Shown: positions 8,428 to 54,578, counted from the first letter of the stretch. The stretch: DNA of 64,000 nt from Minisyncoccota bacterium (GCA_031291825.1 JARLIG010000008.1:5674-69673); one strand, 5' to 3'. Notes: generated by a model not told the origin, from the sequence alone. Made by a program: numbers and translations.

Positions 8428-10341
8428 TTATTGATTTAAAGCTGCTCGGGTTAATGGTCCGACAACTCCATCACCGCTTAAGTTGTGAGCTAGTTGGAAT
8501 TTAATTAGAGCTGCTTTGGTGTTGGCACCAAATACTCCATCAGTCAATAAACTGTAATTTAAAGATGCATTTAATAATGTTTGTAGTTCTGTAACAGCTG
8601 TGCCATTACTGCCACTTACGAGCAACGCAGTACCTAGGTTGTAAGTCGGTGCAACTCCAGCTATGGGTAGTTCTGGCGTGGTGTTATTATAACAAGTTTG
8701 ACCTGTGACTGTGCTAAATCCAACAGTCCCAAAACAGCCAACAATTATGTTGGTAGTATTACCAAAACATGATTGTCCAGTAGTCGTACTGAAGCCAACT
8801 GCTCTGTTGTCACAACCGAGAATCACCACCGGAAGTGTATTTGTTATTGTATTAACACCAGTATTTGGTAAGGTTGGAGTAGTTGTTGGTGTAGAAACTA
8901 CAGTTGTTGGATTCGTGCTTGAGCCACCATACAATTGTCCTCCGCCACCTCCCTGAGGAGAAACTGTCGCTGGAGGCGTTGAGGCTACTGTTACCGTAGC
9001 TGCCGCTCCAGCTGTAAAACCTGCAGAGAAGGTTGCTTGAACGGGTAATATTGTATAAGTATTTCCTAGAACGGTAGTACCGCTTACTGTGACTGTTGCG
9101 ACTGTGTTTCCTGAAGACAAAACAACGTTTGAAATAGTTCCCAAGTCAGTTACATTCGTTCCACCAAGTGTCCAATTACTATTCACTATGCCAGCTGTAG
9201 GGTCAAAAGTTCCTGTAGTTAATGTGTAAGTAATTACAGAAGTGCCTTGTGTGGTAGTCGCTGTGCCAATAGATAAAACTGGACTAACTACTGATGGATC
9301 AACAACAGTATTACCAATTAATGAAACGTCTGTTTGTCCTAAAGCTCGTCCTTGTAAGGTTGCACCATTTTGCATAGCAATAGTTGAAGACCCTGGACCA
9401 GCCAGAATGTTTCCTTCAAAAGTAGATGTGGTTTGTAGAGTAGATGTTCCAGCTACCGCCCAGAAAATATTCGCAGGTACAGCCCCGCCACTTAAAATAA
9501 CACTTTTCGCAGAACTGATATCAAGATTTCCGGGTATTTGAAATATCCAAACAGCACTCGAGCTTCCTGAAAGAGTAAGGTTGGTTGCAATATTTACGTC
9601 TCCAGAACCATCAAAAGTATAAACACCCGGAGCAAGTGTTAAACCGCCCAAGTTACAGGTGCCGCTGACACAGGCTCCTGCATCAAGCACGGTGGTGGCT
9701 GGAACGAGAGCGTTGTTGTATGCAGTAGTTAGGTCACTAGAAGCAGTTTGTTCTTTAGTTGGAGTTGGAACATTGTAATCGTACGCATATACATTTCCAG
9801 AAACTAAAGATGAAGTAGTGTAGGTTGTTGGGGGAACAGATAAAGCAAAACCAGTAATAGCAGTACTTGTTACTCCAGGACCCGTTCCAATATCTCCAGT
9901 GATGGCACTCGTACCAGTATTAGAAATTCCAGTATTAGAAAAAACGGCAAAATTAGTTAGACTTCCCAAGTTTACCGCCGTTGGTGCTACCACATAAGTG
10001 AATCCTCCAGTGGAAGTGATTGTCCCGGTATCAGTATTTGTCACCACAACGTTCTTCGCGCCGACCGTGCCGACAGGAGTAAGCGCTGTAATTTGCGTAG
10101 TGCTTACTACTACAACACTAGTCGCTGCAGTACCACCGACGGTAACAGTTGCGCCGGATGCAAACTGTGTTCCAGTAATGGTTATTGAGGTTCCACCGTT
10201 TACAATACCAAAAGCGGGAGCAATGCTGCCGATAGTGGGAGAGGAGGCAGCGAAAACCATATTAGGCACAACTGAAATAATAAACGCAAAAACTAGCACA
10301 AAAAGACCCATTCCTATCAAACTTTTATTAATATGTTTCAT
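8428..10341 (-). CDS. Secreted surface protein: IPT/TIG-like domain, DUF3494 ice-binding-like beta-helix domain, Cys-motif repeats, and a C-terminal peptidoglycan-binding domain
   Basis: Signal peptide, then an Ig-like segment (PTIGSIAPAFGIVNGGTSITITGTQF). DUF3494 hallmarks are NFAVFSNTGISNTGTSAITGDIGTGPGVTSTAITGF and ANIFWAVAGTSTLQTTSTFEGNILAGPGSSTIAMQNGATLQGRALGQTDVSLIGNTVV. An SPQGGGGGQLY motif and two GFSTxTGQxC repeats follow. The PG_binding_1-like C-terminus is LQTLLNASLNYSLLTDGVFGANTKAALIKFQLAHNLSGDGVVGPLTRAAL. Confidence 0.8.
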   Translation of the reverse strand: MKHINKSLIGMGLFVLVFAFIISVVPNMVFAASSPTIGSIAPAFGIVNGGTSITITGTQFASGATVTVGGTAATSVVVVSTTQITALTPVGTVGAKNVVVTNTDTGTITSTGGFTYVVAPTAVNLGSLTNFAVFSNTGISNTGTSAITGDIGTGPGVTSTAITGFALSVPPTTYTTSSLVSGNVYAYDYNVPTPTKEQTASSDLTTAYNNALVPATTVLDAGACVSGTCNLGGLTLAPGVYTFDGSGDVNIATNLTLSGSSSAVWIFQIPGNLDISSAKSVILSGGAVPANIFWAVAGTSTLQTTSTFEGNILAGPGSSTIAMQNGATLQGRALGQTDVSLIGNTVVDPSVVSPVLSIGTATTTQGTSVITYTLTTGTFDPTAGIVNSNWTLGGTNVTDLGTISNVVLSSGNTVATVTVSGTTVLGNTYTILPVQATFSAGFTAGAAATVTVASTPPATVSPQGGGGGQLYGGSSTNPTTVVSTPTTTPTLPNTGVNTITNTLPVVILGCDNRAVGFSTTTGQSCFGNTTNIIVGCFGTVGFSTVTGQTCYNNTTPELPIAGVAPTYNLGTALLVSGSNGTAVTELQTLLNASLNYSLLTDGVFGANTKAALIKFQLAHNLSGDGVVGPLTRAALNQ

Positions 10342-34176: not shown

Positions 34177-34224
34177 CTCCAGACGTTGGACGTCTGTAAG
34201 CTTACAGACGTCCAACGTCTGGAG
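34177..34224. repeat. 48-bp perfect palindrome of the CCAGACGT repeat family (intergenic)
   Basis: CTCCAGACGTTGGACGTCTGTAAGCTTACAGACGTCCAACGTCTGGAG is its own reverse complement. Confidence 0.85.
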
Positions 34225-35579: not shown

Positions 35580-35749
35580 ATATTAATTAGATTAATTATT
35601 AATTAGTAAACTTAATGAAGTAAACAATATATAACTTATAATAAACAGAATACGACATTTTCTGTGTGCTAATATATACGTGATATGTGAGGTAAATGGT
35701 GCATAACTTTGATGCACCATTTTTAATTATTTTGGCGTATAATATATAT

Positions 35750-37696
35750 ATGATGAAAATATTTAAAAAATCTAATTTGTTTCTATTTTCTTTTTTAGTA
35801 ATTATGTTTTCTATGTTTTCTATGTTTATTTCCACAGCCCACGCTACCGTGACTCCGACTCTTTCAGTGGCAGCTACTGGAGATGGAAATTCAGTTCAGG
35901 TTAATGTTATGGGAGACCCAAATGCCAGTGTTTTTATGGTTTATGTAAAAAGTGGTGCTGGACAACAGATACCTTTAATTGGAACTACCAGTGCCAGTGG
36001 ATTTTTGACTACCACCATCAGTAGCTCCTCTTATGGAATTGTTTCTGGCGCTCCAGTTTATGTCATATTGGATAATATCAATGGTCCGCAATCTGCCAAT
36101 GTGACTTGGCCAGCGGTGACTTCCTTGCTCTCTAGCGGTAACATGATTTCTCTCAGCCAAACCGGTTTGGTTTTGACAGTTGGACAATCATCAACAATTA
36201 CTGCTAGCAATTTAAATGGTAGTTCTTTATATTTATCCAGTAATTCTAATCCACTCATCGCCAATTTTAGTGTCAGTGGCTCTCAGATAACTGTTTTAGC
36301 TAATGGTTATGGCTCTACTACTGGAACGGTATGTTTAGTTAACAATACTACAAACTGTGCAAGCATCTATGTCATGGTTCAAAATAGTAGTGCAGTGCCA
36401 CTTAGTTTTAGTCAAAACAGTATTTCCTTGTCATCTGGACAATCTGTAGCTGTTCAGATTTCTGGTGGTTCTGGATCTTATTCTGTGCTTAGTAATTCTA
36501 GTCAAGGTGGCGCTTTAGTAACTACCAGTATTTCTGGACAAATTATTACTTTGACCACGGCTAGCACGAGTGGTTCTTCATCAATCACTGTTTGTTCTAC
36601 AAATATGAATTCTTGTGGAATTGTAAATGTTTCAATCGGTACGACTAATTCCACAACTACGGCAATTTCTTTTAGTCAAACAAATCCGACTGTAACTATC
36701 GGACAGAGCTCTAATATTAGTATCTATGGTCCCACCAGTAGTCTCTTTTATGTTTCTTCAAATTCAAATCCTAGTATTGTCCAAGCCAATTTATCTGGTA
36801 GTGTTCTGACCTTGCTTGGTATTGCTAATGGAACTTCCACAATAAGTGTTTGTTCTTCCTCAAGTAATTGTGGAACCTTAACTGTAACCGTCAGTCCTAA
36901 TTACAGTACAAACGGTGGAAATATTACACTAAGCCAAGACACTATCTCTCTTTCTGTTGGTCAGAATTCAAATATTACAGTTTCTGGTGGAACCATGCCC
37001 TATACCACTTTGATTACACCCAATAATATTTTTCAAGCGACGCTCAACAGTAACATATTGACGATTTATGGTCTTGCAGCAGGTTCGTCTTCGATGAGTG
37101 TGTGCTCAAACGGAACATGTGCTTCTGTTACTGTCACAGTTCTAGGAACAGGTTCAACTAGTTCTTATTTACCGGTGGGCTGTTACTCCACTGTCGGCTA
37201 TAGTCAAACGACAGGAATGTCTTGCTCGACAGTTGTTTCTGCCAACACCAGTACTATTTATCCAGCGGGTTGTTACTCTACTGTTGGTTATAGTCAAACT
37301 AGTGGCTTACCTTGTAGCTCTACATCTACTGCCACAACACCGACGGTGCCAGTTGATTGTACCGGAGCAGTCTATAGCATCTCCACTGGTCAAGCTTGTC
37401 CTGTCAGCACTATAATAACTACCCCAGTTGTCGCAACACCCACGACTGTTGCTACACCTACACCCGCATCAACAAATACCGCTTTTATTTTTACCACTCA
37501 ACTGAAGCTAGGTTCCACTGGTACTGCAGTAATTCAATTACAGAAAAAATTAAAAACATTAGGATTTTACAAAGGGAAAATTGATGGGGGATATGGAGCA
37601 GCAACAGAATTAGCGGTTAAGGCACTTCAAAAAGCTCATAAACTTTCTCAAGTAGGTGTCGTTGGTCCACAGACAAGAGCAATTTTAAATAAATAA
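35750..37696 (+). CDS. Large secreted surface protein: about five Big_2-like Ig repeats, Cys-motif repeats, and a C-terminal peptidoglycan-binding domain
   Basis: The track ORF starts at 35696. The signal peptide MMKIFKKSNLFLFSFLVIMFSMFSMFISTAHA begins at 35750. Repeats follow the pattern LS.SQ..ISLS.GQS..V.ISGG. The motifs GCYSTVGYSQTTGMSCS, GCYSTVGYSQTSGLPCS and CTGAVYSISTGQACP follow, then the C-terminal LKLGSTGTAVIQLQKKLKTLGFYKGKIDGGYGAATELAVKALQKAHKLSQVGVVGPQTRAIL. Confidence 0.75.
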   Translation: MMKIFKKSNLFLFSFLVIMFSMFSMFISTAHATVTPTLSVAATGDGNSVQVNVMGDPNASVFMVYVKSGAGQQIPLIGTTSASGFLTTTISSSSYGIVSGAPVYVILDNINGPQSANVTWPAVTSLLSSGNMISLSQTGLVLTVGQSSTITASNLNGSSLYLSSNSNPLIANFSVSGSQITVLANGYGSTTGTVCLVNNTTNCASIYVMVQNSSAVPLSFSQNSISLSSGQSVAVQISGGSGSYSVLSNSSQGGALVTTSISGQIITLTTASTSGSSSITVCSTNMNSCGIVNVSIGTTNSTTTAISFSQTNPTVTIGQSSNISIYGPTSSLFYVSSNSNPSIVQANLSGSVLTLLGIANGTSTISVCSSSSNCGTLTVTVSPNYSTNGGNITLSQDTISLSVGQNSNITVSGGTMPYTTLITPNNIFQATLNSNILTIYGLAAGSSSMSVCSNGTCASVTVTVLGTGSTSSYLPVGCYSTVGYSQTTGMSCSTVVSANTSTIYPAGCYSTVGYSQTSGLPCSSTSTATTPTVPVDCTGAVYSISTGQACPVSTIITTPVVATPTTVATPTPASTNTAFIFTTQLKLGSTGTAVIQLQKKLKTLGFYKGKIDGGYGAATELAVKALQKAHKLSQVGVVGPQTRAILNK

Positions 37697-44580: not shown

Positions 44581-44612
44581 TCCCTCCGATTTATCTCGGA
44601 GGGATTTTTTGT
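44581..44612 (+). terminator. Rho-independent terminator
   Basis: TCCCTCCGATTTATCTCGGAGGGA followed by TTTTTTG. Confidence 0.75.
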
Positions 44613-44644
44613 TTAAAATTAATATAGATGATACAATCTTAAAA

Positions 44645-46234
44645 ATGCAAGAAATTAACACCCAAATATTAATTATTGATTTAGGTTCTCAATACACGGA
44701 AATAATCAGACGCAGTTTGCGTTATTTGGGATTTCGCTCAACCATAATTTCTCCGGAGGAACTTTTAGAGGCTCCAGACGTTGGACGTCTGGAAGCTTCC
44801 AGACGTCCAACGTCTGGAGCGGGAGCCAACTTGAAGAGCATTATTTTATCTGGTGGTAGCGCCAGTGTCTATGATGGAGATGCTCCTAAAATTCCAAAAG
44901 AAATATTAGATTTAGGTATTCCAATTTTGGGCATTTGTTATGGAATGCAATGGTTGGCTTATGTCAACAATCCTGACTCTGTGCATAAAGTTAAAGAGGG
45001 TAAATCATATGGTCCTGTTGAAGTGACTTTAAGCAAAAGCAAACTTTTTGAAAATTTAAGCGAAAAGAATAATGGAAAGATAAATGCATGGTCCAGCCAT
45101 GGAGATTCAGTAAAAAAAGTTCCAGCTGACTTTAGTATTATTGCTACTTCCAAAGACGGTGTAGTGATTGAAGGTATGGAGTGTCAGGCGAAAAATATTT
45201 ATGCTGTGCAGTTTCATCCAGAAGTGGAGCAAACCGAAGATGAAAATATTATTTTAAATAATTTTGCTTCAAAAATTTGTAATTGCATTTTAGATTATGA
45301 CAAAAAAAATATCATAGAAGAAATTAGAACAAATACCAAAAAAATATTAGGTAATGGCACGGCAATTATTGGAGTCTCCGGCGGAGTTGATTCTACGACC
45401 TTGGCTGCTATTTTGGCGCCAGCACTAGGTGAGCAATTGAAAGCATTTGTGATTGATACTGGCGGAATGCGCAAAGATGAAGTTGAGAGGGTAAGAGAAA
45501 TCGCTAAAAAAGCAGGTGTAAACCTGGAAGTAATTGATAGGTATAAAAATAAATTTGTGGAAAGTGTGGGGAAGAGCATTGATGCTGAAGAAAAACGTGC
45601 TCACTTTCGAGCAGTTTACGGGGAAGTATTTCAAGAAGTGGCGAAATCCTATGGTGCAACCCATATGATTCAAGGAACTTTGGCGACTGATTTGATTGAA
45701 TCTGGTGGTGCCGGAAAGTCTGCTTTAATTAAGACACATCACAATGTTGACCTTAAACTTGGATTGAAGGAAATAATACCATTGTCTGATTTTTTCAAAT
45801 TTGAAGTGCGAGAACTAGCACGTGAATTTGGATTGGAAGAATTATTAACTAATCGTCAGCCTTTCCCAGGCCCAGGTTTGTATTTGCGAATTGTTGGAGT
45901 AAAAGTCACAGAAGAATTATTGGAGATTGTTCGAGAGGCAGATTATGAAGTGACACAAATTCTAAAAAAACACAATGTTTATAAGGATATTTCTCAAACT
46001 ATTGTGGCGCTCCTCGGAGTAAATACTGTGGGAGTAAAAGGCGATGGCAGAGTCTATGGATATTCTTTGGTGGTGCGTACCGTGGAGACAATTGATTTTA
46101 TGACAGTCAAGGGATTTTACTTAGAGAAAGTTATCTGTGAAGAAATAACTAGCGCGTTGGTCAAGCATCCAAAAATTGTTCGAGTGTTTTTTGATTGGAC
46201 GACCAAACCTCCAGCAACGACTGAATTTGAATAA
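44645..46234 (+). CDS. guaA: GMP synthase (glutamine-hydrolysing), carrying a 16-aa in-frame palindromic-repeat insertion
   Basis: The track ORF starts at 44609, but a terminator overlaps it, so the ATG at 44645 (MQEINTQILIIDLGSQYTE) is preferred. GATase signature GICYGMQ, ATP-PPase P-loop GVSGGVDSTT, and C-terminal KPPATTEFE are present. Confidence 0.95.
   Translation: MQEINTQILIIDLGSQYTEIIRRSLRYLGFRSTIISPEELLEAPDVGRLEASRRPTSGAGANLKSIILSGGSASVYDGDAPKIPKEILDLGIPILGICYGMQWLAYVNNPDSVHKVKEGKSYGPVEVTLSKSKLFENLSEKNNGKINAWSSHGDSVKKVPADFSIIATSKDGVVIEGMECQAKNIYAVQFHPEVEQTEDENIILNNFASKICNCILDYDKKNIIEEIRTNTKKILGNGTAIIGVSGGVDSTTLAAILAPALGEQLKAFVIDTGGMRKDEVERVREIAKKAGVNLEVIDRYKNKFVESVGKSIDAEEKRAHFRAVYGEVFQEVAKSYGATHMIQGTLATDLIESGGAGKSALIKTHHNVDLKLGLKEIIPLSDFFKFEVRELAREFGLEELLTNRQPFPGPGLYLRIVGVKVTEELLEIVREADYEVTQILKKHNVYKDISQTIVALLGVNTVGVKGDGRVYGYSLVVRTVETIDFMTVKGFYLEKVICEEITSALVKHPKIVRVFFDWTTKPPATTEFE
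44772..44819. repeat. 48-bp perfect palindrome (CCAGACGT family) inserted in-frame inside guaA
   Basis: CTCCAGACGTTGGACGTCTGGAAGCTTCCAGACGTCCAACGTCTGGAG translates as (A)PDVGRLEASRRPTSG. Removing exactly these 48 bp gives a contiguous canonical GATase loop. Confidence 0.85.
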
Positions 46235-47228: not shown

Positions 47229-48896
47229 TTAAAAAATTCTCCTCAAGAGACTCATGAACCAGTTTTTGTGTATAGGTTCTATTTGAGTTATGGTAACCGG
47301 AAACACAGTTGCATTTATTGCACTGGCTATGTTTTGTACTGCTGGATTTTCTGACTTTACAATTGTTGCAACTTCCTTTTTTGGAATATTTTTAATAACT
47401 GATACAGTGTTTGTATTTTCTCCATTAATGATAGGTGGAGTCGTTTCACCTACAGATGTAATATTCATCGCAACATTTTGTTTTTCAAAAGTTTGCATTG
47501 CTTGGTTCCAAGTTTTTCCAGATAACGCAGAATTGACATAAGCAGTTTCCCAAATTTTAGTTTGAAGGTCTGCGTCTTTCACTCCACCATCAATATCTTG
47601 AATAGTGGCTAAGTAATCAAGTGGAGTTTTTGGAGCAGTGCCGTCTGTGGGTTTGGTTAACCAATCTGCTGGTTTTTCATTTTGCGCCAAAATTCCTTCT
47701 ATGGCCCAAGCGGTTGAAGAAGCATTGTCATTCCAACTGCCATCCGCCCTCTCACTTTGTTCTAAGAAATTTTCTGCATTTGCCAGAGCGTCTTTTACTT
47801 GTCCGACTTGATTGAAAGCAGATAGAGCCTCCATCGCCGCGCCAGTCATATCTACACTATCGCTATCCCAAGAGCCATCACTACCTTGTTTGCTTAATAT
47901 AAAATTTATATCACTACTTATAATTGGGTCACTCTGCGTGTATCCAGCATTTTGTAAAACGATTAGAGCAAAAATATCATCATTGTCTTCGTTTGGGTCG
48001 CCGAATTGTTTTCCGTCAAAACTCGTAACTATTTTTCCAATATAATTTTCTCCATTCGTGTCGTAAGGATTGAGTCCAAGAGCCATCAACGCCATCGCGC
48101 GTCTTTCATAGTCGGTTAAGATTGGGTTTTCCATTGTCTCTCCATCAAGATATTTTGTTAACTTTATTGTTTGTGATTCATAATTTCCTGAAGCAAGAGC
48201 TATAGCTGCCCAGTCAGTGTATAAATCTCCGTCAAAAGAACCGTCAGTTCCTTGTTGGGCAGTTAGAAAATCAAAAGCTTTTCCCGTATCAAAAGTCGGG
48301 GTAGTTGTTACTATTGGCGTAGGTATAGATGCGATTGTTGCTACTGTGGAAGGCGCTGCTGGTGTGGTTGTAGATGTATTTGAAGGAGTATTGTCGTTCA
48401 ATTGTCCGCCTCCAGAACCAACTGGAGCGGGTGGAATTAACGAATTAATATTAATTGTAACTTGGTCTCCTAAACTATTATTATTAAAATCATCAAGCTG
48501 GAACATGATCGTGTCTCCAGCAGAGATTGGTAACTCAGTTGCTCCAAAATTAGCTGAAGTGCCGTTTTGATAAATTGCCCAATATTGGCTACTGGGGTCA
48601 GCAGCCACATTATTAATTGCAGTAATAAAAAGGCCATACTGAGGATCATTTGAAAATTGTGGATTAGATATAGCACCATTATTTTCTGCTGCCTCTAGTG
48701 CACAAATGGCAAGATATGAGTTTGTAAAACCCGCTTGTGGATAATTGTGAACTACTCCGTTCGTGTCGGTGACAGAGCAACTAGATGGTACATCTACTGA
48801 GGTTGTAATATTTAACCCTGCTGCATGAACAGTATTAAAAAAACCAAAAATAACGAAACTTGCTAAAACTATAAATATACTTATTTTATTTTTCAT
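47229..48896 (-). CDS. Secreted protein with an N-terminal DUF4430 beta-domain and a prenyltransferase/squalene-cyclase-like alpha/alpha-toroid repeat domain (transcobalamin-like domain set)
   Basis: Signal peptide. DUF4430-like GLFITAINNVAADPSSQYWAIYQNGTSANFGATELPISAGDTIMFQL. An SGGGQL motif. Repeated Q..DGS(W/F) segments (GTDGSFDGDLYTDWAAIAL, QGSDGSWDSDSVDMTGAAMEAL, RADGSWNDNASSTAWAIEGIL) are typical of alpha-alpha toroid prenyltransferase/terpene-cyclase repeats. Confidence 0.75.
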   Translation of the reverse strand: MKNKISIFIVLASFVIFGFFNTVHAAGLNITTSVDVPSSCSVTDTNGVVHNYPQAGFTNSYLAICALEAAENNGAISNPQFSNDPQYGLFITAINNVAADPSSQYWAIYQNGTSANFGATELPISAGDTIMFQLDDFNNNSLGDQVTININSLIPPAPVGSGGGQLNDNTPSNTSTTTPAAPSTVATIASIPTPIVTTTPTFDTGKAFDFLTAQQGTDGSFDGDLYTDWAAIALASGNYESQTIKLTKYLDGETMENPILTDYERRAMALMALGLNPYDTNGENYIGKIVTSFDGKQFGDPNEDNDDIFALIVLQNAGYTQSDPIISSDINFILSKQGSDGSWDSDSVDMTGAAMEALSAFNQVGQVKDALANAENFLEQSERADGSWNDNASSTAWAIEGILAQNEKPADWLTKPTDGTAPKTPLDYLATIQDIDGGVKDADLQTKIWETAYVNSALSGKTWNQAMQTFEKQNVAMNITSVGETTPPIINGENTNTVSVIKNIPKKEVATIVKSENPAVQNIASAINATVFPVTITQIEPIHKNWFMSLLRRIF

Positions 48897-48910: not shown

Positions 48911-49378
48911 TTAATAATCTGACTTCTCATATTTCCAAGAGACGACATCTCCAGGGTTTATCTTATAATTTGAAATACCAATTTGTGCTTCTATACCGTT
49001 CACATAGTAAATCCAAACCAAGCTATTACTATTTTTTATTCCGTTTATTTCATTTATAAATTTACCCATACTCATATAATTTTGTTCGGTGAAATTTATT
49101 TTTCCTTCACTTCGGAGCTGGCTCATAAAATCATAGACACTCATTTTCTGTGTAATGGCATCTTCATAGCTGACTCCGTTTATTTCTAAAACAGTTTCAA
49201 TTGTTTTGGTCTGGCTGACAGGTTTATTTGCTGTGGTATTTAGATTTAAATTTTCTGAAATGGCAGGAAGGTTAGTCGTCTGTTGTTTTGGAGCTCCGTG
49301 TGGAATAAAGAAAAATAATCCTAATAATATTAAAACTATGATGACCACTATAATTATTTTTATTTTTTTATTTTTCAT
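48911..49378 (-). CDS. Membrane-anchored DUF4430 domain protein
   Basis: TM anchor, then VYDFMSQLRSEGKINFT...MGKFINEINGI...LVWIYYVNGIEAQIGISNYKINPGDVVSWKYE matches the DUF4430 consensus (YW.Y.VNG....G.S.Y.L..GD.I.W.Y). Confidence 0.7.
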   Translation of the reverse strand: MKNKKIKIIIVVIIVLILLGLFFFIPHGAPKQQTTNLPAISENLNLNTTANKPVSQTKTIETVLEINGVSYEDAITQKMSVYDFMSQLRSEGKINFTEQNYMSMGKFINEINGIKNSNSLVWIYYVNGIEAQIGISNYKINPGDVVSWKYEKSDY

Positions 49379-49394
49379 AAATTAAGCACAAAAA

Positions 49395-49590
49395 AAATCC
49401 TGCCAGATAGAATCCAGAGCAGAATTTGGGGTCCTTCAAATAAAGAGATAAATGAAGGCAAAGAGACTTTTGTCCTGCTCGGGAATACATGAAACGATTG
49501 GTATTCGGACTTGTCTTCGACCTAGGTCGAAGCTTACCGTAGCGGCACTGTACTGGAATCAAACCAGTTTCCCCAATAGTTTCTTTTCGT
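49395..49590 (-). ncRNA. Candidate cobalamin riboswitch in the leader of the DUF4430 operon
   Basis: The minus strand reads UAUUGGGGAAACUGGUUUGAUUCCAGUACAGUGCCGCUACGGUAAGC...(hairpin)...GAAGACAAGUCCGAAUACCAAUCG. This matches the B12-element core GGGAA-n3-GGUG-nAAnUCC...CnG-nCCCGCCACUGU and the 3' AAGUCAGGAUACC block. An expression-platform hairpin and U8 tract lie at about 49391-49420. Confidence 0.4.
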
Positions 49591-49632
49591 TTTCAAATGA
49601 ACTCACTCTAGTATATACTTACCCTATATCTT

Positions 49633-50070
49633 ATGTCAAAGAAAAGTGTGGAAACAAAAAAAAAGAAAATTATGGTCTTTGGAACTTTCGACGGTCTACA
49701 TAAAGGTCATGTTGATTTTTTTAAACAGGCTAAAAACTTCATAAAAAATTCATTTTTAATTGTTTCAATAGCTAGAGATAAAAATGTTTTAAAAATAAAA
49801 GGGGAGTATCCAAGTTTAAAAGAGGGAGAACGGGTCGCCTTAGTTGAAAGTTGTAAACTAGCTGATAAAGTTATTTTGTCTGGTACAAAAAACCATATTC
49901 CACATATTGTGAAAATCCGTCCAGATATTATTGCTCTAGGTTACGACCAAAAAGCCTATGTGAAAGATTTAAAAAAAGATTTAAAAAACAAGGGTGTTTT
50001 AGTTAAAATCATACGTCTTAAACCTTACAAGGAACATGTTTATAAGAATCACTTGCTAAAAATTAAGTGA
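49633..50070 (+). CDS. Cytidylyltransferase-superfamily protein, closest to archaeal-type FAD synthase RibL (FMN adenylyltransferase)
   Basis: (H/T)xGH motif GTFDGLHKGH. LIVSIARD...LKGE.P...ERV..V...K.ADKVILG...IRPDIIALGYDQ parallels RibL. The start may be the ATG at 49672 (MVFGTFDG). Confidence 0.6.
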   Translation: MSKKSVETKKKKIMVFGTFDGLHKGHVDFFKQAKNFIKNSFLIVSIARDKNVLKIKGEYPSLKEGERVALVESCKLADKVILSGTKNHIPHIVKIRPDIIALGYDQKAYVKDLKKDLKNKGVLVKIIRLKPYKEHVYKNHLLKIK

Positions 50071-51394: not shown

Positions 51395-52558
51395 TTAAAT
51401 ATCAGCCTTGCGAATAGTTGAGGCGAGGTAAACTCCAAAAAGCATCATCAACCCCAAGACGGGGAAGATGAAATTAAATTTCGGTAGAAAAATAAAAACC
51501 ATTAAGGCCACAATCGGTCCAGTAATGTAAGCCAAAGGACTTGTGCTACGGTAAATTCCGACAAATTCTTCATTTTCTGGTTTGATGTGTTTAAAAAAAT
51601 ACGAGTCACTCATGACTTCGACAGTTGCGGCGCCGACTCGAGTCAAGAAAAGCAATGCTGCCCATATCCAAATCTCTGGTTTTTGAATAAAGAACAGAGA
51701 AATGGTTGAAATAGAAATAATAAAAAATCCAACCATCAACATTTTTCTTTCACCGACCTTATCTGAATATCTTCCCATTGAAGACTCAATCAACACAAAA
51801 GGTAAGAGCATTATGGTAAAAATTATAGCAATATCTTTCCAAGTGAAACCTAAATAAGAATATAGATATATAGGTGTATAAATAATCATCCAGCAATAGA
51901 AGAACTGCAGAAGAAAATCTATACTATATGAACGTAAAAGATTTTTATTTTTTATAAAATCCTTAACATAACTTAAGATTTTTAATCTGTCGTATTTTGG
52001 GTCTGGAATATTTTTGAGTCCAAATAAAGATAATAGGAAAAATAATATCATTATAAAAAAAGCAATGATATAAATTGTTTTCAAGGGAAAATTTCCAAAA
52101 ACTGTTCCGGATAATAATTGTGCCACGACCCAAGCAAAATTACTTAAAGCAAGATAGATACCTCTAATTCTTCCAGTTGCTGATTCCTTAGAAAATATCT
52201 TTAATAATTCATCCAACGAAAAGAAAACTACGATATTTAAGGCAAAGCCAAGAACAAAAGAACATACAGCAGAAAAAGCATTAGTAGATAATGCCAACCA
52301 CAGTATCGATAGAGTATTAAGTCCAATTACTAACAATAAAAATCTATGCCCTCCAATTTTTCTAAAAACCCTTGGAGCAAACAAAAGCATCAAGATAGAA
52401 ACGAGTGAACCTAAGGTATAAACTAATCCAACAAATCTCTCACCGATAAACGGTGAGAGAAAACTGGAGTTTATATAAGACATCAACGCTATTGGAATTG
52501 ATGCCAAGAAACCCGCAAAGTATATAATTATTCTGTCACGCTTCATATTTTTAAACAC
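51395..52558 (-). CDS. MFS-type transporter
   Basis: 387 aa and 12 TMs. Confidence 0.65.
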   Translation of the reverse strand: MFKNMKRDRIIIYFAGFLASIPIALMSYINSSFLSPFIGERFVGLVYTLGSLVSILMLLFAPRVFRKIGGHRFLLLVIGLNTLSILWLALSTNAFSAVCSFVLGFALNIVVFFSLDELLKIFSKESATGRIRGIYLALSNFAWVVAQLLSGTVFGNFPLKTIYIIAFFIMILFFLLSLFGLKNIPDPKYDRLKILSYVKDFIKNKNLLRSYSIDFLLQFFYCWMIIYTPIYLYSYLGFTWKDIAIIFTIMLLPFVLIESSMGRYSDKVGERKMLMVGFFIISISTISLFFIQKPEIWIWAALLFLTRVGAATVEVMSDSYFFKHIKPENEEFVGIYRSTSPLAYITGPIVALMVFIFLPKFNFIFPVLGLMMLFGVYLASTIRKADI

Positions 52559-54578
52559 TCAAGATTACAGGAATGACTAGAGGTCTCTTGGCAGTTTTTT
52601 GGTATAAGAATTTTGAAATATTTTCTCCCAAGTTGGCTTTAATGTGGTCAAAATCCATATTGTTTTCACCCTGATTTAAGGAAAGGGGAACCTTGGCAGT
52701 CATATCTTCGATTGATTTTTTAATAATGATTCTAACCTGACGCAGAAGTTCTTGATTTTCTTTTAAGTAAACAAATCCTCTGGAAATTAAGTCTGGAGAT
52801 TTTTTGAGCTTTCCAGTTTTTTGGTCAAGCAAAGCAATGATGACAAACATACCATCTTGTGAAAGCATCTGACGGTCTCGGATGACGACATCTTGGGTGT
52901 CAGAGACGGAAGTGCCGTCCACCAACATTGGTCCACTTGGAGCTGTTTCTTTTCTTCTTGTTATTTTTTGTCCATCAGCGGATATTTCAATTATTGAACC
53001 ATTGTCTGGTACGACAATATTTTCTTCTGACATCCCCAGTTCCATTGCTAGCTCTTTGTGTTTTTCCAAAAAAGAATGATTTCCATGAATTGGAATAAAG
53101 AATTTTGGATGAGTCTTGTGGTGAAGCCATTTAATGTCTTCTTGGTTGCCGTGACCAGTCGCGTGAACAAAGTCTTCTCCAGCAGTGCGGTAACTGATAA
53201 TTTTTACACCCTGTCTAGTTAAACCATCTTTCATTTTTTGAACCTTAAGTTCATTACCTGGAATGATGGAGGCAGAAAGAATGATTGTATCACCTTTGTG
53301 GAGTTTAAATTTAGTGTGTGATTTATTGGCTGCGCGATTGAGTGAAGCAAATTCTTCGCCTTGCGCGCCAGTCATTAAGATAATGACTTTATTTGGAGGA
53401 TAATTATCAGCATCTTCAATTGGAATAATCGTGCCCTTTTTTGGGGTGAAAAGTCCAGCTTCAATTGCTACATCGATGTTTGTTTTCATCGAACGTCCAT
53501 CCAAAACTATTTTTTTACCCATGGTCTCTGCAAATTTAACAATATGAGCCAATCTGGTAATATGTGAAGCGAAAGCGGCAATAATCATTCGACCTTGTAC
53601 TTTTTTTATTAAATTCTCAAGTCCTTGGTGGACTTTTATTTCCGGTAGAGAAAAACCTTCATTTTCGATATTAGTGGAATCAGTCATCAAAAGAAGCACT
53701 TTAGCTTTGTCGAAAATTGAATATTCTCTTTCTTCATCTTTGGCGACGACTCCGTCTACTTGGTCTAGCTTATAATCTCCCGGAGTGACAATCCAGCCGT
53801 TGGCGGTTTCGATAATTATTCCCATTGAGTCTGGAATAGTATGGGTGACACCGAAGAATCGGATTTTTATTTTTCCACAAGTTATAACTGAATCTTTTTC
53901 TACAATAACTTCTTTCATGGGTGCTAATTGTGGAAATTCTGCTTGACGTTTTCGCATCATCAAGATAGAAAGATTTCTAGAATAAACTGGTGGGTTTCCA
54001 ATGCGTGAAAGTACCAATGGTACACCACCAATGTGGTCTAAGTGCCCGTGAGTAATCAAAAGCGCACGAATTTTATCTTTGCGTTCTTCTAGATAAGTCG
54101 TATTTGGTATCACATAGTCAACTCCAGGGGTGGCTTCAGTAGAAAAAAGCATACCAGCATCAATAATAACGATGTCGTCATCGATTTCGATAGCAGTCAT
54201 ATTTTTCCCAATTTCTTCTACTCCGCCGAGCGGGATAATACGCACCACGCCTTTTTCTGGTGGGGGAATTTTTGCCATGTTAGCGTTCTTGTATTGATTT
54301 TTTTGAGGAAAAGAGCCAGTGGAAGAACTTGGTCCAAATCTTTTTTTGGTATATTGATATGTAGAACTTTTTAAGTTTCTTTTATTTTGCGTGTTTCTTC
54401 CAGGTGTCCCGTGTTTTTGGATGACAGATGTTCCACGTCTTGATAAATTACCTCCAGACGTTCCACGTCTGGAAGCTTCCAGACGTGGAACGTCTGGAGA
54501 AGCTGAGTTTGTACCTTTGTTTTCCTCCTTAGTGTCCTTTGTTATAGACGAGAAAGAGAGTCTTGTTTTTTTTGTCAT
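52551..54578 (-). CDS. rnj: Ribonuclease J (metallo-beta-lactamase/beta-CASP), with a repeat-containing N-terminal extension
   Basis: HxHxDH motif LITHGHLDHIGGVP and beta-CASP motifs. The track ORF is 675 aa. The canonical RNase J body starts at M101 (MAKIPPPEKGVVRIIPLGGVEEIGKN; ATG at 54276-54278). The preceding 100 aa contain a CCAGACG palindrome copy. Confidence 0.9.
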   Translation of the reverse strand: MTKKTRLSFSSITKDTKEENKGTNSASPDVPRLEASRRGTSGGNLSRRGTSVIQKHGTPGRNTQNKRNLKSSTYQYTKKRFGPSSSTGSFPQKNQYKNANMAKIPPPEKGVVRIIPLGGVEEIGKNMTAIEIDDDIVIIDAGMLFSTEATPGVDYVIPNTTYLEERKDKIRALLITHGHLDHIGGVPLVLSRIGNPPVYSRNLSILMMRKRQAEFPQLAPMKEVIVEKDSVITCGKIKIRFFGVTHTIPDSMGIIIETANGWIVTPGDYKLDQVDGVVAKDEEREYSIFDKAKVLLLMTDSTNIENEGFSLPEIKVHQGLENLIKKVQGRMIIAAFASHITRLAHIVKFAETMGKKIVLDGRSMKTNIDVAIEAGLFTPKKGTIIPIEDADNYPPNKVIILMTGAQGEEFASLNRAANKSHTKFKLHKGDTIILSASIIPGNELKVQKMKDGLTRQGVKIISYRTAGEDFVHATGHGNQEDIKWLHHKTHPKFFIPIHGNHSFLEKHKELAMELGMSEENIVVPDNGSIIEISADGQKITRRKETAPSGPMLVDGTSVSDTQDVVIRDRQMLSQDGMFVIIALLDQKTGKLKKSPDLISRGFVYLKENQELLRQVRIIIKKSIEDMTAKVPLSLNQGENNMDFDHIKANLGENISKFLYQKTAKRPLVIPVILSV
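54428..54499. repeat. CCAGACGT-family palindrome (loop variant TTCCA/TGGAA) plus an upstream half-unit, within the rnj 5' region
   Basis: CTCCAGACGTTCCACGTCTGGAAGCTTCCAGACGTGGAACGTCTGGAG at 54452-54499, preceded by ATGTTCCACGTCTTG at 54429-54443. In the long rnj frame it translates as SPDVPRLEASRRGTSG, the same frame as in guaA. Confidence 0.85.

Follow-up and report, generated by a model that had tools for sequence, protein, structure and literature searches.

A compact cobalamin riboswitch predicted upstream of a DUF4430 gene pair in a Minisyncoccota bacterium

The leader of a gene pair in a Minisyncoccota bacterium raises the question whether an ultra-small bacterium of the candidate phyla radiation (CPR) carries an RNA sensor of cobalamin and, if so, how binding of the ligand could be transmitted to the genes downstream. 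The stretch of DNA analysed here, called the window, is 64 kb long, and its minus strand encodes two DUF4430 proteins one after the other. In the gap upstream of the first gene (48911..49378) an initial annotation had placed a candidate cobalamin riboswitch, at 49395-49590. The gap is there, with a length of 254 and not 255 bp, and so is the element, but the functional unit is slightly wider, covering 49390..49604 on the minus strand with a promoter in addition at 49610..49639. Judged from its sequence and from those of its relatives, this element is a genuine cobalamin riboswitch of the ordinary kind, and it very probably represses the two-gene operon by premature termination of transcription in response to cobalamin or another corrinoid.

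Membership in the cobalamin clan

A cmsearch of the window with the Rfam model RF00174 finds the minus strand of 49479..49621 at 40.0 bits, above the gathering score of 31.5 (E = 1.2e-6 for the whole window); in a permissive Rfam scan of the region no other family rises above 16 bits. The proposal of a cobalamin riboswitch thus clears the threshold, and no other RNA family fits better. Both blocks of the B12 element lie on the minus strand in the order first proposed, block 1 (UUGGGGAAACUGGUUUGAUUCCAGUACAGUGCCGCUACGGU) at 49576..49536 and block 2 (AAGUCCGAAUACC) at 49512..49500, and the variable hairpin between them is CUUCGACCUAGGUCGAAG at 49532..49515, with the stem CUUCGACC/GGUCGAAG. Promoter DNA, which the model aligns as P1 and P2, contributes about 9 of the 40 bits, and on the transcribed part alone RF00174 gives 31.1 bits, just below the threshold. 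Since the match by itself is marginal in this part, the call owes its security to the comparative evidence. The parts of the element, as they are used below, are the following.

49610..49639, minus strand: sigma-70-type promoter, with the -35 box TTGACA at 49639..49634, an 18-nt spacer and the -10 box TATACT at 49615..49610
49584..49604, minus strand: AU-rich 5' leader GAGUUCAUUUGAAAACGAAAA, aligned as P2 by Rfam, lying 5' of P1
49491..49583, minus strand: cobalamin aptamer, from RF00174, the family model R1 and covariation
49583..49573, minus strand: 5' strand of P1/P3, GAAAC-U-AUUGG
49572..49552, minus strand: J3/4 with P4 and L4, where L4 has 7 nt
49549..49541, minus strand: P5/L5, AG-UGCCG-CU
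49543..49547, minus strand: loop L5, UGCCG, proposed kissing partner of L13
49539..49537 with 49508..49506, minus strand: base of P6, CGG pairing with CCG
49532..49515, minus strand: P6 hairpin
49512..49500, minus strand: B12 box AAGUCCGAAUACC
49501..49491, minus strand: 3' strand of P3/P1, CCAAU-C-GUUUC
49485..49490, minus strand: J1/13 linker AUGUAU, 6 nt, between aptamer and P13
49473..49484, minus strand: P13/L13 mini-hairpin UCC[CGAGCA]GGA in the block UCCCGAGCAGGA, invariant in about 70 loci, with L13 at 49481..49476
49483..49473, minus strand: 5' strand of the putative antiterminator, CCCGAGCAGGA, within the P13/L13 block
49433..49458, minus strand: variable hairpin CCUUCA...UGAAGG, enclosed by the antiterminator helix and differing in sequence among relatives
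49414..49424, minus strand: 3' strand of the putative antiterminator, UUCUGCUCUGG, overlapping the 5' strand of the terminator
49390..49427, minus strand: intrinsic terminator, with AAAUUCUGC at 49427..49419, a 15-nt loop, GCAGGAUUU at 49403..49395 and U8 at 49397..49390

The promoter matches the consensus at 11 of 12 positions, and 51 of 75 related leaders have kept its -35 and -10 boxes with the distance between them fixed. From a promoter that is both conserved and close to consensus it follows that transcription probably starts near 49603, and from its position that what Rfam aligns as an outer "P1" (49621..49605) is promoter DNA. As an RNA helix this outer P1 was rejected, because it coincides with the conserved -10 box; it is without it that the score falls to 31.1 bits. 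The P2 hairpin of the Rfam alignment was not accepted either, as its 3' strand overlaps the covarying P1 helix and RNAalifold shows no conserved hairpin; applied to 76 sequences of the AU-rich leader, this program returns no structure and an energy of 0.0.

The comparative sample consists of 80 genomic loci from Paceibacteria/Patescibacteria that encode relatives of the gene 1 product. This product has an identical counterpart, a DUF4430 protein, in a Candidatus Pacebacteria metagenome-assembled genome, and it has hundreds of homologs in the same groups; an exact-sequence lookup gave no match, and the homolog search lists the NCBI protein of that assembled genome. Directly upstream and on the gene strand, 30 of the 40 loci scanned with Rfam have a match of the cobalamin clan, for which the best model is mostly RF00174, as it is in the window, five times RF01689 and once RF01482 (locus L021, 51.7 bits versus 50). 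The covariance model R1, built from 24 related leaders, scores 145.9 bits in the window and matches 75 of the 80 loci, always upstream and on the gene strand; for the five loci without a match, little or no upstream sequence was available.

In an alignment of 77 sequences, 97.1% of the pair cells hold standard pairs and 22 of the 27 pairs have changed on both sides, and the observed covariation values are reached by none of 500 column shuffles. When the 3' partners are slid by 1-3 columns, the pairing falls to 20-59%. Changes on both sides are seen in 10/10 pairs of P1/P3, 3/5 of P4, 2/2 of P5 and 4/4 of the P6 hairpin, the base of P6 being invariant, so that in the homologous leaders the helices are kept through compensatory changes. 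These data also decide a quite different explanation, according to which the leader resembles a riboswitch by chance, or is a decayed copy, and regulates nothing. The marginal 31.1 bits on the transcribed part would agree with such a view, but it is refuted by the recurrence of the element in 75 related loci, where each variable helix shows compensatory changes and promoter, terminator and antiterminator are conserved as well, and the view is left with next to no probability.

From aptamer to terminator

To see how the element could act, consider the leader from its promoter onward. Transcription would start near 49603, and the RNA would fold into an 11-bp P1-P3 helix and a P3-P6 four-way junction, with a 7-nt L4, the 5-nt L5 UGCCG and a short P6 hairpin. 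With a corrinoid in place, L5 would pair with the loop of the weak, 3-bp P13 and thereby hold the block in P13. With the block so held, the terminator AAAUUCUGC...GCAGGAUUU with its U8 would form, and RNA polymerase would stop 11 nt before the ATG. When there is no ligand, P13 would be too weak to persist, and CCCGAGCAGGA would pair with UUCUGCUCUGG in the 5' strand of the terminator; this antiterminator, in which CCCGAGCAGGA meets UUCUGCUC, would let transcription proceed into the genes. Most likely, then, plentiful B12 stops the transcription of two surface proteins similar to transcobalamin, a carrier of B12 in humans.

The order of parts that this scheme demands is kept across the relatives: the aptamer is followed by a short linker, the UCCCGAGCAGGA block, a variable hairpin, AAAUUCUGC, a short loop, GCAGRAUUU and U7-8. 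The hairpin with a U8 tract (49397..49390) that had been seen just before the start codon, and whose end lies 11 nt from the ATG at 49378, is an intrinsic terminator that is conserved among the relatives. RNAfold gives it -11.1 kcal/mol in the window, and 68 of the 71 loci that have the block also have such a terminator (mean -12.7 kcal/mol), mostly of the form AAAUUCUGC-loop-GCAGRAUUU with U7-8. Pairing between the block and the 5' strand of the terminator has a mean energy of -11.6 kcal/mol, compared with -4.9 kcal/mol for shuffled blocks, and in 79% of the loci at most 5 of 200 shuffled blocks equal the pairing of the real one; in the window the duplex has 11 pairs and -16.2 kcal/mol, which none of 200 shuffled blocks equals. 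Four loci with different terminators (L015, L016, L065 and L072) have kept the complementarity of the block to their own terminator. Folded alone, the platform of the window adopts the antiterminator at -23.5 kcal/mol, while P13 alone amounts to about -1 kcal/mol, and when the block is made unavailable in the folding, the terminator forms.

Two other ways of coupling were considered and put aside. In the classical one the 3' strand of P1 takes part in the antiterminator, but here the sequence of the linker between P1 and the block varies, sometimes with an inserted hairpin, so that this usual P1-overlap mechanism does not apply. Neither the variable hairpin nor the terminator could serve as carrier of L13, as their loops are not conserved.

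The sign of the response can be read from the same strands. The block is complementary, not identical, to the 5' strand of the terminator, and by this criterion the arrangement is predicted to be repressing and not activating. The 3' strand of the terminator repeats GCAGGA from the block, as is expected for competing helices. For an activating switch, where the ligand prevents termination, there is a precedent in the one activating cobalamin riboswitch known, that of A. halodurans cobT (PMC10327014). In the cobT switch, though, P13 has on its 3' side the same sequence as the terminator has in its 5' strand, whereas in the window the block is identical to the 3' strand, which is the repressing arrangement; moreover, the genes look like genes for B12 capture, which B12 normally represses. 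Activation is therefore most improbable here.

The kissing loop is what would connect the aptamer with this platform. In the kissing loops of cobalamin riboswitches, the L13 side is reported always to leave one or more nucleotides unpaired, and a stem-loop is needed to carry L13 (PMC5028336). In the window, the duplex computed for L5 UGCCG and L13 CG-A-GCA has five Watson-Crick pairs and one bulged A. Of 57 dereplicated loci, 56 present the cognate loop CG.GCA on a hairpin whose stem has 3 bp or more, in contrast to 0-1 for non-cognate motifs, so that by computation the leader has what is typical of the clan, an L5-L13 kissing loop on a stem-loop with an unpaired nucleotide.

Within the family both loops are invariant, and for this reason covariation was looked for in other lineages. 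Locus L072, from Wildermuthbacteria, has L5 CCCCG together with UCUUU[CGCGGG]AAAGA, where the 3' side of P13 is complementary to the locus's own, different terminator. A metagenome scan for L5 variants gave 120 stretches, about 15 of them real riboswitches and the rest mostly chance (tRNA T-arms, coding DNA). Metagenomic switches with L5 CCCCG have the L13 hairpins CCUC[CGAGGG]GAGG and CCUU[CGUGGG]AGGG, and one with L5 ACGCG has CGG[CGACGU]CCG. From these matching variants follows that three loop pairs change on both sides, with the position of the bulge constant.

Two compact metagenomic switches with L5 CCCCG, L092 and L152, each have two successive hairpins with CG.GGG loops, about 55-60 nt apart, such as CCUC[CGAGGG]GAGG and CCU[CGAGGG]AGG, in which the loop and the 3' side of the stem read as Shine-Dalgarno-like GGAGG or GGGAGG. 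These double hairpins could be duplicated L13 partners or a decoy.

The linker between aptamer and P13 has a modal length of 6 nt and measures 4-11 nt in 58 of 71 loci. All ten linkers of at least 21 nt fold into a hairpin, and three of 13-15 nt are without predicted structure. In env8HyCbl, where the single-stranded J1/13 linker is likewise short (7 nt there, 6 nt here), docking of the loops depends on linker length (PMC5028336), and the pattern of lengths among the relatives fits this dependence. A hairpin element of about 35-70 nt, CCCGUAsU...AsUACyGGG, recurs as an insertion in several related leaders, in the J1/13 linker of L008, L025, L051, L057 and L060 and between terminator and start codon in L001, L022, L054 and L058; it looks like a small mobile or repetitive hairpin, and the window is without a copy.

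A close parallel for the platform is Priestia megaterium metE, for which the logic of P13, antiterminator and terminator has been proven by mutagenesis (PMC10327014). There as here, the ligand would favour the kissing loop, the kissing loop would hold P13 and the held P13 would leave the terminator free to form, in a version that is miniaturised here to a P13 of 3 bp. The metE switch differs in its class-I aptamer, in a longer P13 with an internal loop, and in a kissing loop of CCG with CGG; in the window, unlike metE, most of L13 itself lies in the antiterminator strand.

Several observations weigh against a corrinoid switch that works by termination, in addition to the marginal score on the transcribed part and the invariance of L5 and L13 within the family. 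No more than five or six sequences of other lineages provide the covariation of the kissing loop, one of them, L198, having been read by eye, and class-I-like switches in the metagenome sample disobey the simple rule of a 6-nt loop. P13 has only 3 base pairs. The loop of the window's terminator is, with 15 nt, unusually large, and a consensus terminator scanner called no terminator in the window leader, a miss explained by the scanner's limit of 8 nt for the loop. Among the open reading frames of the window that were checked there is neither a B12-dependent enzyme nor a B12 transporter. Finally, no Shine-Dalgarno sequence is evident before the ATG, and the hairpin abuts the start codon, so that a translational contribution may be mixed in with termination.

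This last point leads to the view that the riboswitch is the same but control mainly translational, in that a ligand-stabilised hairpin near the start codon blocks the access of ribosomes, instead of termination or besides it. Not only does the terminator end close to the ATG, but in several relatives (L012, L014 and L041 among them) the U tract meets the start codon directly, and well-studied class-II switches such as env8HyCbl act on translation (PMC5028336). Yet a stem containing G+C followed by U7-8, as present in 68 of the 71 loci, marks an intrinsic terminator, and occlusion would not require it; moreover, L13 of the window contains no ribosome-binding site, unlike L092 and L152 with GGAGG in loop or stem. 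Control of this kind is accordingly rated as unlikely.

Aptamer class and ligand

Which corrinoid is sensed depends on the class of the aptamer. The closing P1-P3 helix is continuous in most relatives and has a single U-C mismatch in the window. The conserved core, GGGGAAAC with GGGAA in J3/4 and AAGUCCGAAUACC, is present and nearly invariant in the family. Where the canonical sequence has ACUG...CA(G)G at the P6 base, this aptamer has ACGG...CCG, a U-A pair replaced by G-C, and it is this one compensated pair that makes both blocks look divergent. The divergence reported for the putative B12 box was accordingly real, but it is that of a compensated base pair, and the label had been misplaced: it belongs to the 3' block AAGUCCGAAUACC, and GCCGCUACGGU is made up of L5/P5 and the 5' strand of the P6 base. 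In characterised switches the B12 box lies after P6 (PMC11260477). RNAalifold also proposes an alternative hairpin, UGCCG-CUA-CGGUA, and GGA/UCC pairs, which were not adopted because they conflict with the canonical P5 and P6 base; all columns concerned are invariant, so that the data cannot decide between the two.

From the long RF00174 consensus the aptamer differs by being a compact, class-II-like form. With class I (E. coli btuB, T. tengcongensis) it shares GGGAA in J3/4, the P4 hairpin, the B12 box and the four-way junction, but in the window 52 model positions of the P6 extension are replaced by 5 nt, P2 is without support, and the outer P1 falls in the -10 box. In almost all relatives P6 is a hairpin of 7-12 bp. 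Class I (Cbl-I) was rejected, since the loop-stem-loop P2 module between P1 and P3 and the large P6 extension (P7-P11) are both missing. Class IIa (Cbl-IIa, RF01689) was rejected too, since there is no bulged J1/3 and 20 of 25 aligned relatives have a standard pair in the junction column. In class IIb, which binds adenosylcobalamin (AdoCbl), J1/3 is short and paired or mismatched and P6 carries a short hairpin (PMC7367189), and this is the architecture found here. By the criteria of that work the aptamer would be of class-II architecture and closest to IIb.

With the eut-type class IIb of RF01482 the aptamer has in common a short paired or mismatched P1-P3 junction in place of the P2 module, a short hairpin that caps P6, the P3-P6 four-way junction and the L5-L13 kissing loop (PMC7367189). 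It differs in that the window and most relatives fit best with RF00174 or RF01689, and in that the genes are DUF4430 genes of Paceibacteria here and eut genes of Firmicutes there. The class IIa switch env8HyCbl is likewise compact, has no P6 extension and has unpaired nucleotides on the L13 side of its kissing loop (PMC5028336). In contrast to the paired junction of the present family, its bulged J1/3 touches the ligand; its kissing loop has two bulged purines and an A-G pair, against one bulged A and five Watson-Crick pairs here; and it hides the ribosome-binding site in L13 and acts on translation, where the output here is a terminator. The compact architecture thus sits between the three Rfam models of the cobalamin clan (CL00101).

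That the aptamer senses hydroxo- or methylcobalamin, in the manner of class IIa, or corrinoids broadly, and not AdoCbl specifically, is quite possible, if somewhat short of probable. The P6 extension and the P2 module, which build the adenosyl pocket of class I, are missing, and several members of the family fit best with RF01689 (AdoCbl-II), which we take to be the env8-type model; the core ACGG...UCCGAAUNCC is probably common to env8HyCbl. Against this stand the P1-P3 junction, which is paired or has a single mismatch and is not the bulged, ligand-contacting J1/3 of class IIa, and locus L021, the sole relative to fit best with RF01482. The same junction, together with the short P6 hairpin, matches the published class IIb that binds AdoCbl (PMC7367189). 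According to two studies, cobalamin riboswitches form a spectrum in how selective they are for a ligand (PMC7367189; PMC9600662).

Among the relatives, the P6 of L034 (L034:2555-2794) is exceptional with an insertion of about 110 nt, and in L022, L001 and L047 an extra hairpin of 20-40 nt replaces the 7-nt L4 loop.

The regulated genes and their surroundings

What would such a switch regulate? The genes around the leader are the following.

48911..49378, minus strand: gene 1, 155 aa, with an N-terminal membrane helix, a disordered linker and a DUF4430 domain (Pfam PF14478, E = 3.5e-13)
47229..48896, minus strand: gene 2, 555 aa, with a signal peptide, DUF4430, a disordered Pro/Thr-rich linker, an alpha/alpha toroid and a C-terminal helix (Pfam PF14478 and PF13243)
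49633..50070, plus strand: divergent gene, 145 aa, CTP_transf_like, of the adenylyl-/cytidylyltransferase family, without an equivalog-level name

DUF4430 corresponds to the C-terminal region of TCN proteins (PMC4350170). A sequence search of the small protein family against the PDB gave no match, and the link of gene 1 to transcobalamin is shown by fold comparison only. When its AlphaFold2 (AF2) model (predicted local distance difference test, pLDDT, 81) is compared with the PDB, there are 19 fold matches with E <= 1e-3, every one of them to transcobalamin, haptocorrin, intrinsic factor or 3u7z, a DUF4430 structure, and against the isolated beta domain of transcobalamin (5no0) the TM score is 0.76 with a root-mean-square deviation of 2.4 A. 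It is through this predicted fold, similar to the transcobalamin beta domain, that the element can be said to lead B12-related genes, as members of the clan do.

A homolog of gene 2 follows downstream on the same strand in 76 of 80 loci. Its AF2 model (pLDDT 78) has the order beta domain then toroid, the reverse of the alpha then beta of the transcobalamin family, whose alpha6/alpha6 barrel and beta domain jointly clamp B12. The toroid is matched best by class II terpene cyclases (E = 9e-6), with transcobalamin and intrinsic factor at E = 7e-4 to 7e-3. A nearly invariant DNDD motif in the toroid (residues 304-307) resembles DxDD, the catalytic motif of class II terpene cyclases, and fits these best fold matches and not transcobalamin, so that an enzymatic role of the gene 2 product is conceivable from the model. 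One homolog of gene 2 has a match to Pfam Cobalamin_bind.

The most economical reading of the predicted folds is that the gene pair presumably serves the capture of corrinoids at the cell surface. Going further, we tentatively consider a module common to the Paceibacteria, in which two surface proteins built from domains of animal B12 carriers, the one membrane-anchored and similar to the transcobalamin beta domain, the other a beta domain with an alpha/alpha toroid in permuted order, may jointly scavenge corrinoids from a host or the environment for ultra-small bacteria that are unable to make B12; this is possible, but we would not call it probable.

The divergent gene is syntenic in 50 of 80 loci and begins with a start codon that overlaps the riboswitch promoter in its -35 box. 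Upstream of the -35 box lies a conserved, DnaA-box-like motif, TTATCCACA. As a regulatory motif it was set aside, for it lies within the first codons of this syntenic gene, and its conservation is likely due to coding constraint.

Elsewhere in the window, a palindrome of about 44-48 nt (CTCCAGACGTyssACGTCTGGAAGCTTCCAGACGTssrACGTCTGGAG) occurs in four copies, at 849-892, 34179-34222, 44774-44817 and 54454-54497, where none is expected by chance. Two of the copies lie in frame within unrelated genes, one guaA-like (44609..46234, peptide PDVGRLEASRRPTSGAG) and one RNase J-like (52551..54578, peptide PDVPRLEASRRGTSGG), which is reminiscent of the Rickettsia palindromic elements that insert into coding sequence. 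Two large secreted proteins, at 8428-10341 on the minus strand and 35696-37696 on the plus strand, have C-terminal peptidoglycan-binding domains, one of them also ice-binding-like and TIG domains; both appear to be typical CPR surface proteins, seemingly unrelated to the riboswitch.

The riboswitch call alone is routine, as standard Rfam annotation would flag the element. In the literature, as far as our incomplete coverage goes, we found no paper that links riboswitches, cobalamin and Patescibacteria, and none on bacterial DUF4430 proteins under the control of a B12 riboswitch. What the leader adds is evidence at the level of RNA that Paceibacteria of the CPR sense corrinoids and economise on them, and through it a DUF4430 gene pair that is widespread but uncharacterised, with predicted folds that resemble animal B12 carriers, receives a B12-related role. 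It also provides a very small and highly conserved example of a kissing loop joined to antiterminator and terminator (about 215 nt, with a 3-bp P13, a 6-nt linker and one bulged A), which could serve as a convenient model or as a part for engineered corrinoid sensors. If the proposed mechanism is true, few of the corrinoid-responsive expression platforms described would be as compact as this one, with its 3-bp P13 and invariant loop, and if the proposed module is true, the gene pair would be a prokaryotic counterpart, and possibly a relative, of transcobalamin and intrinsic factor.

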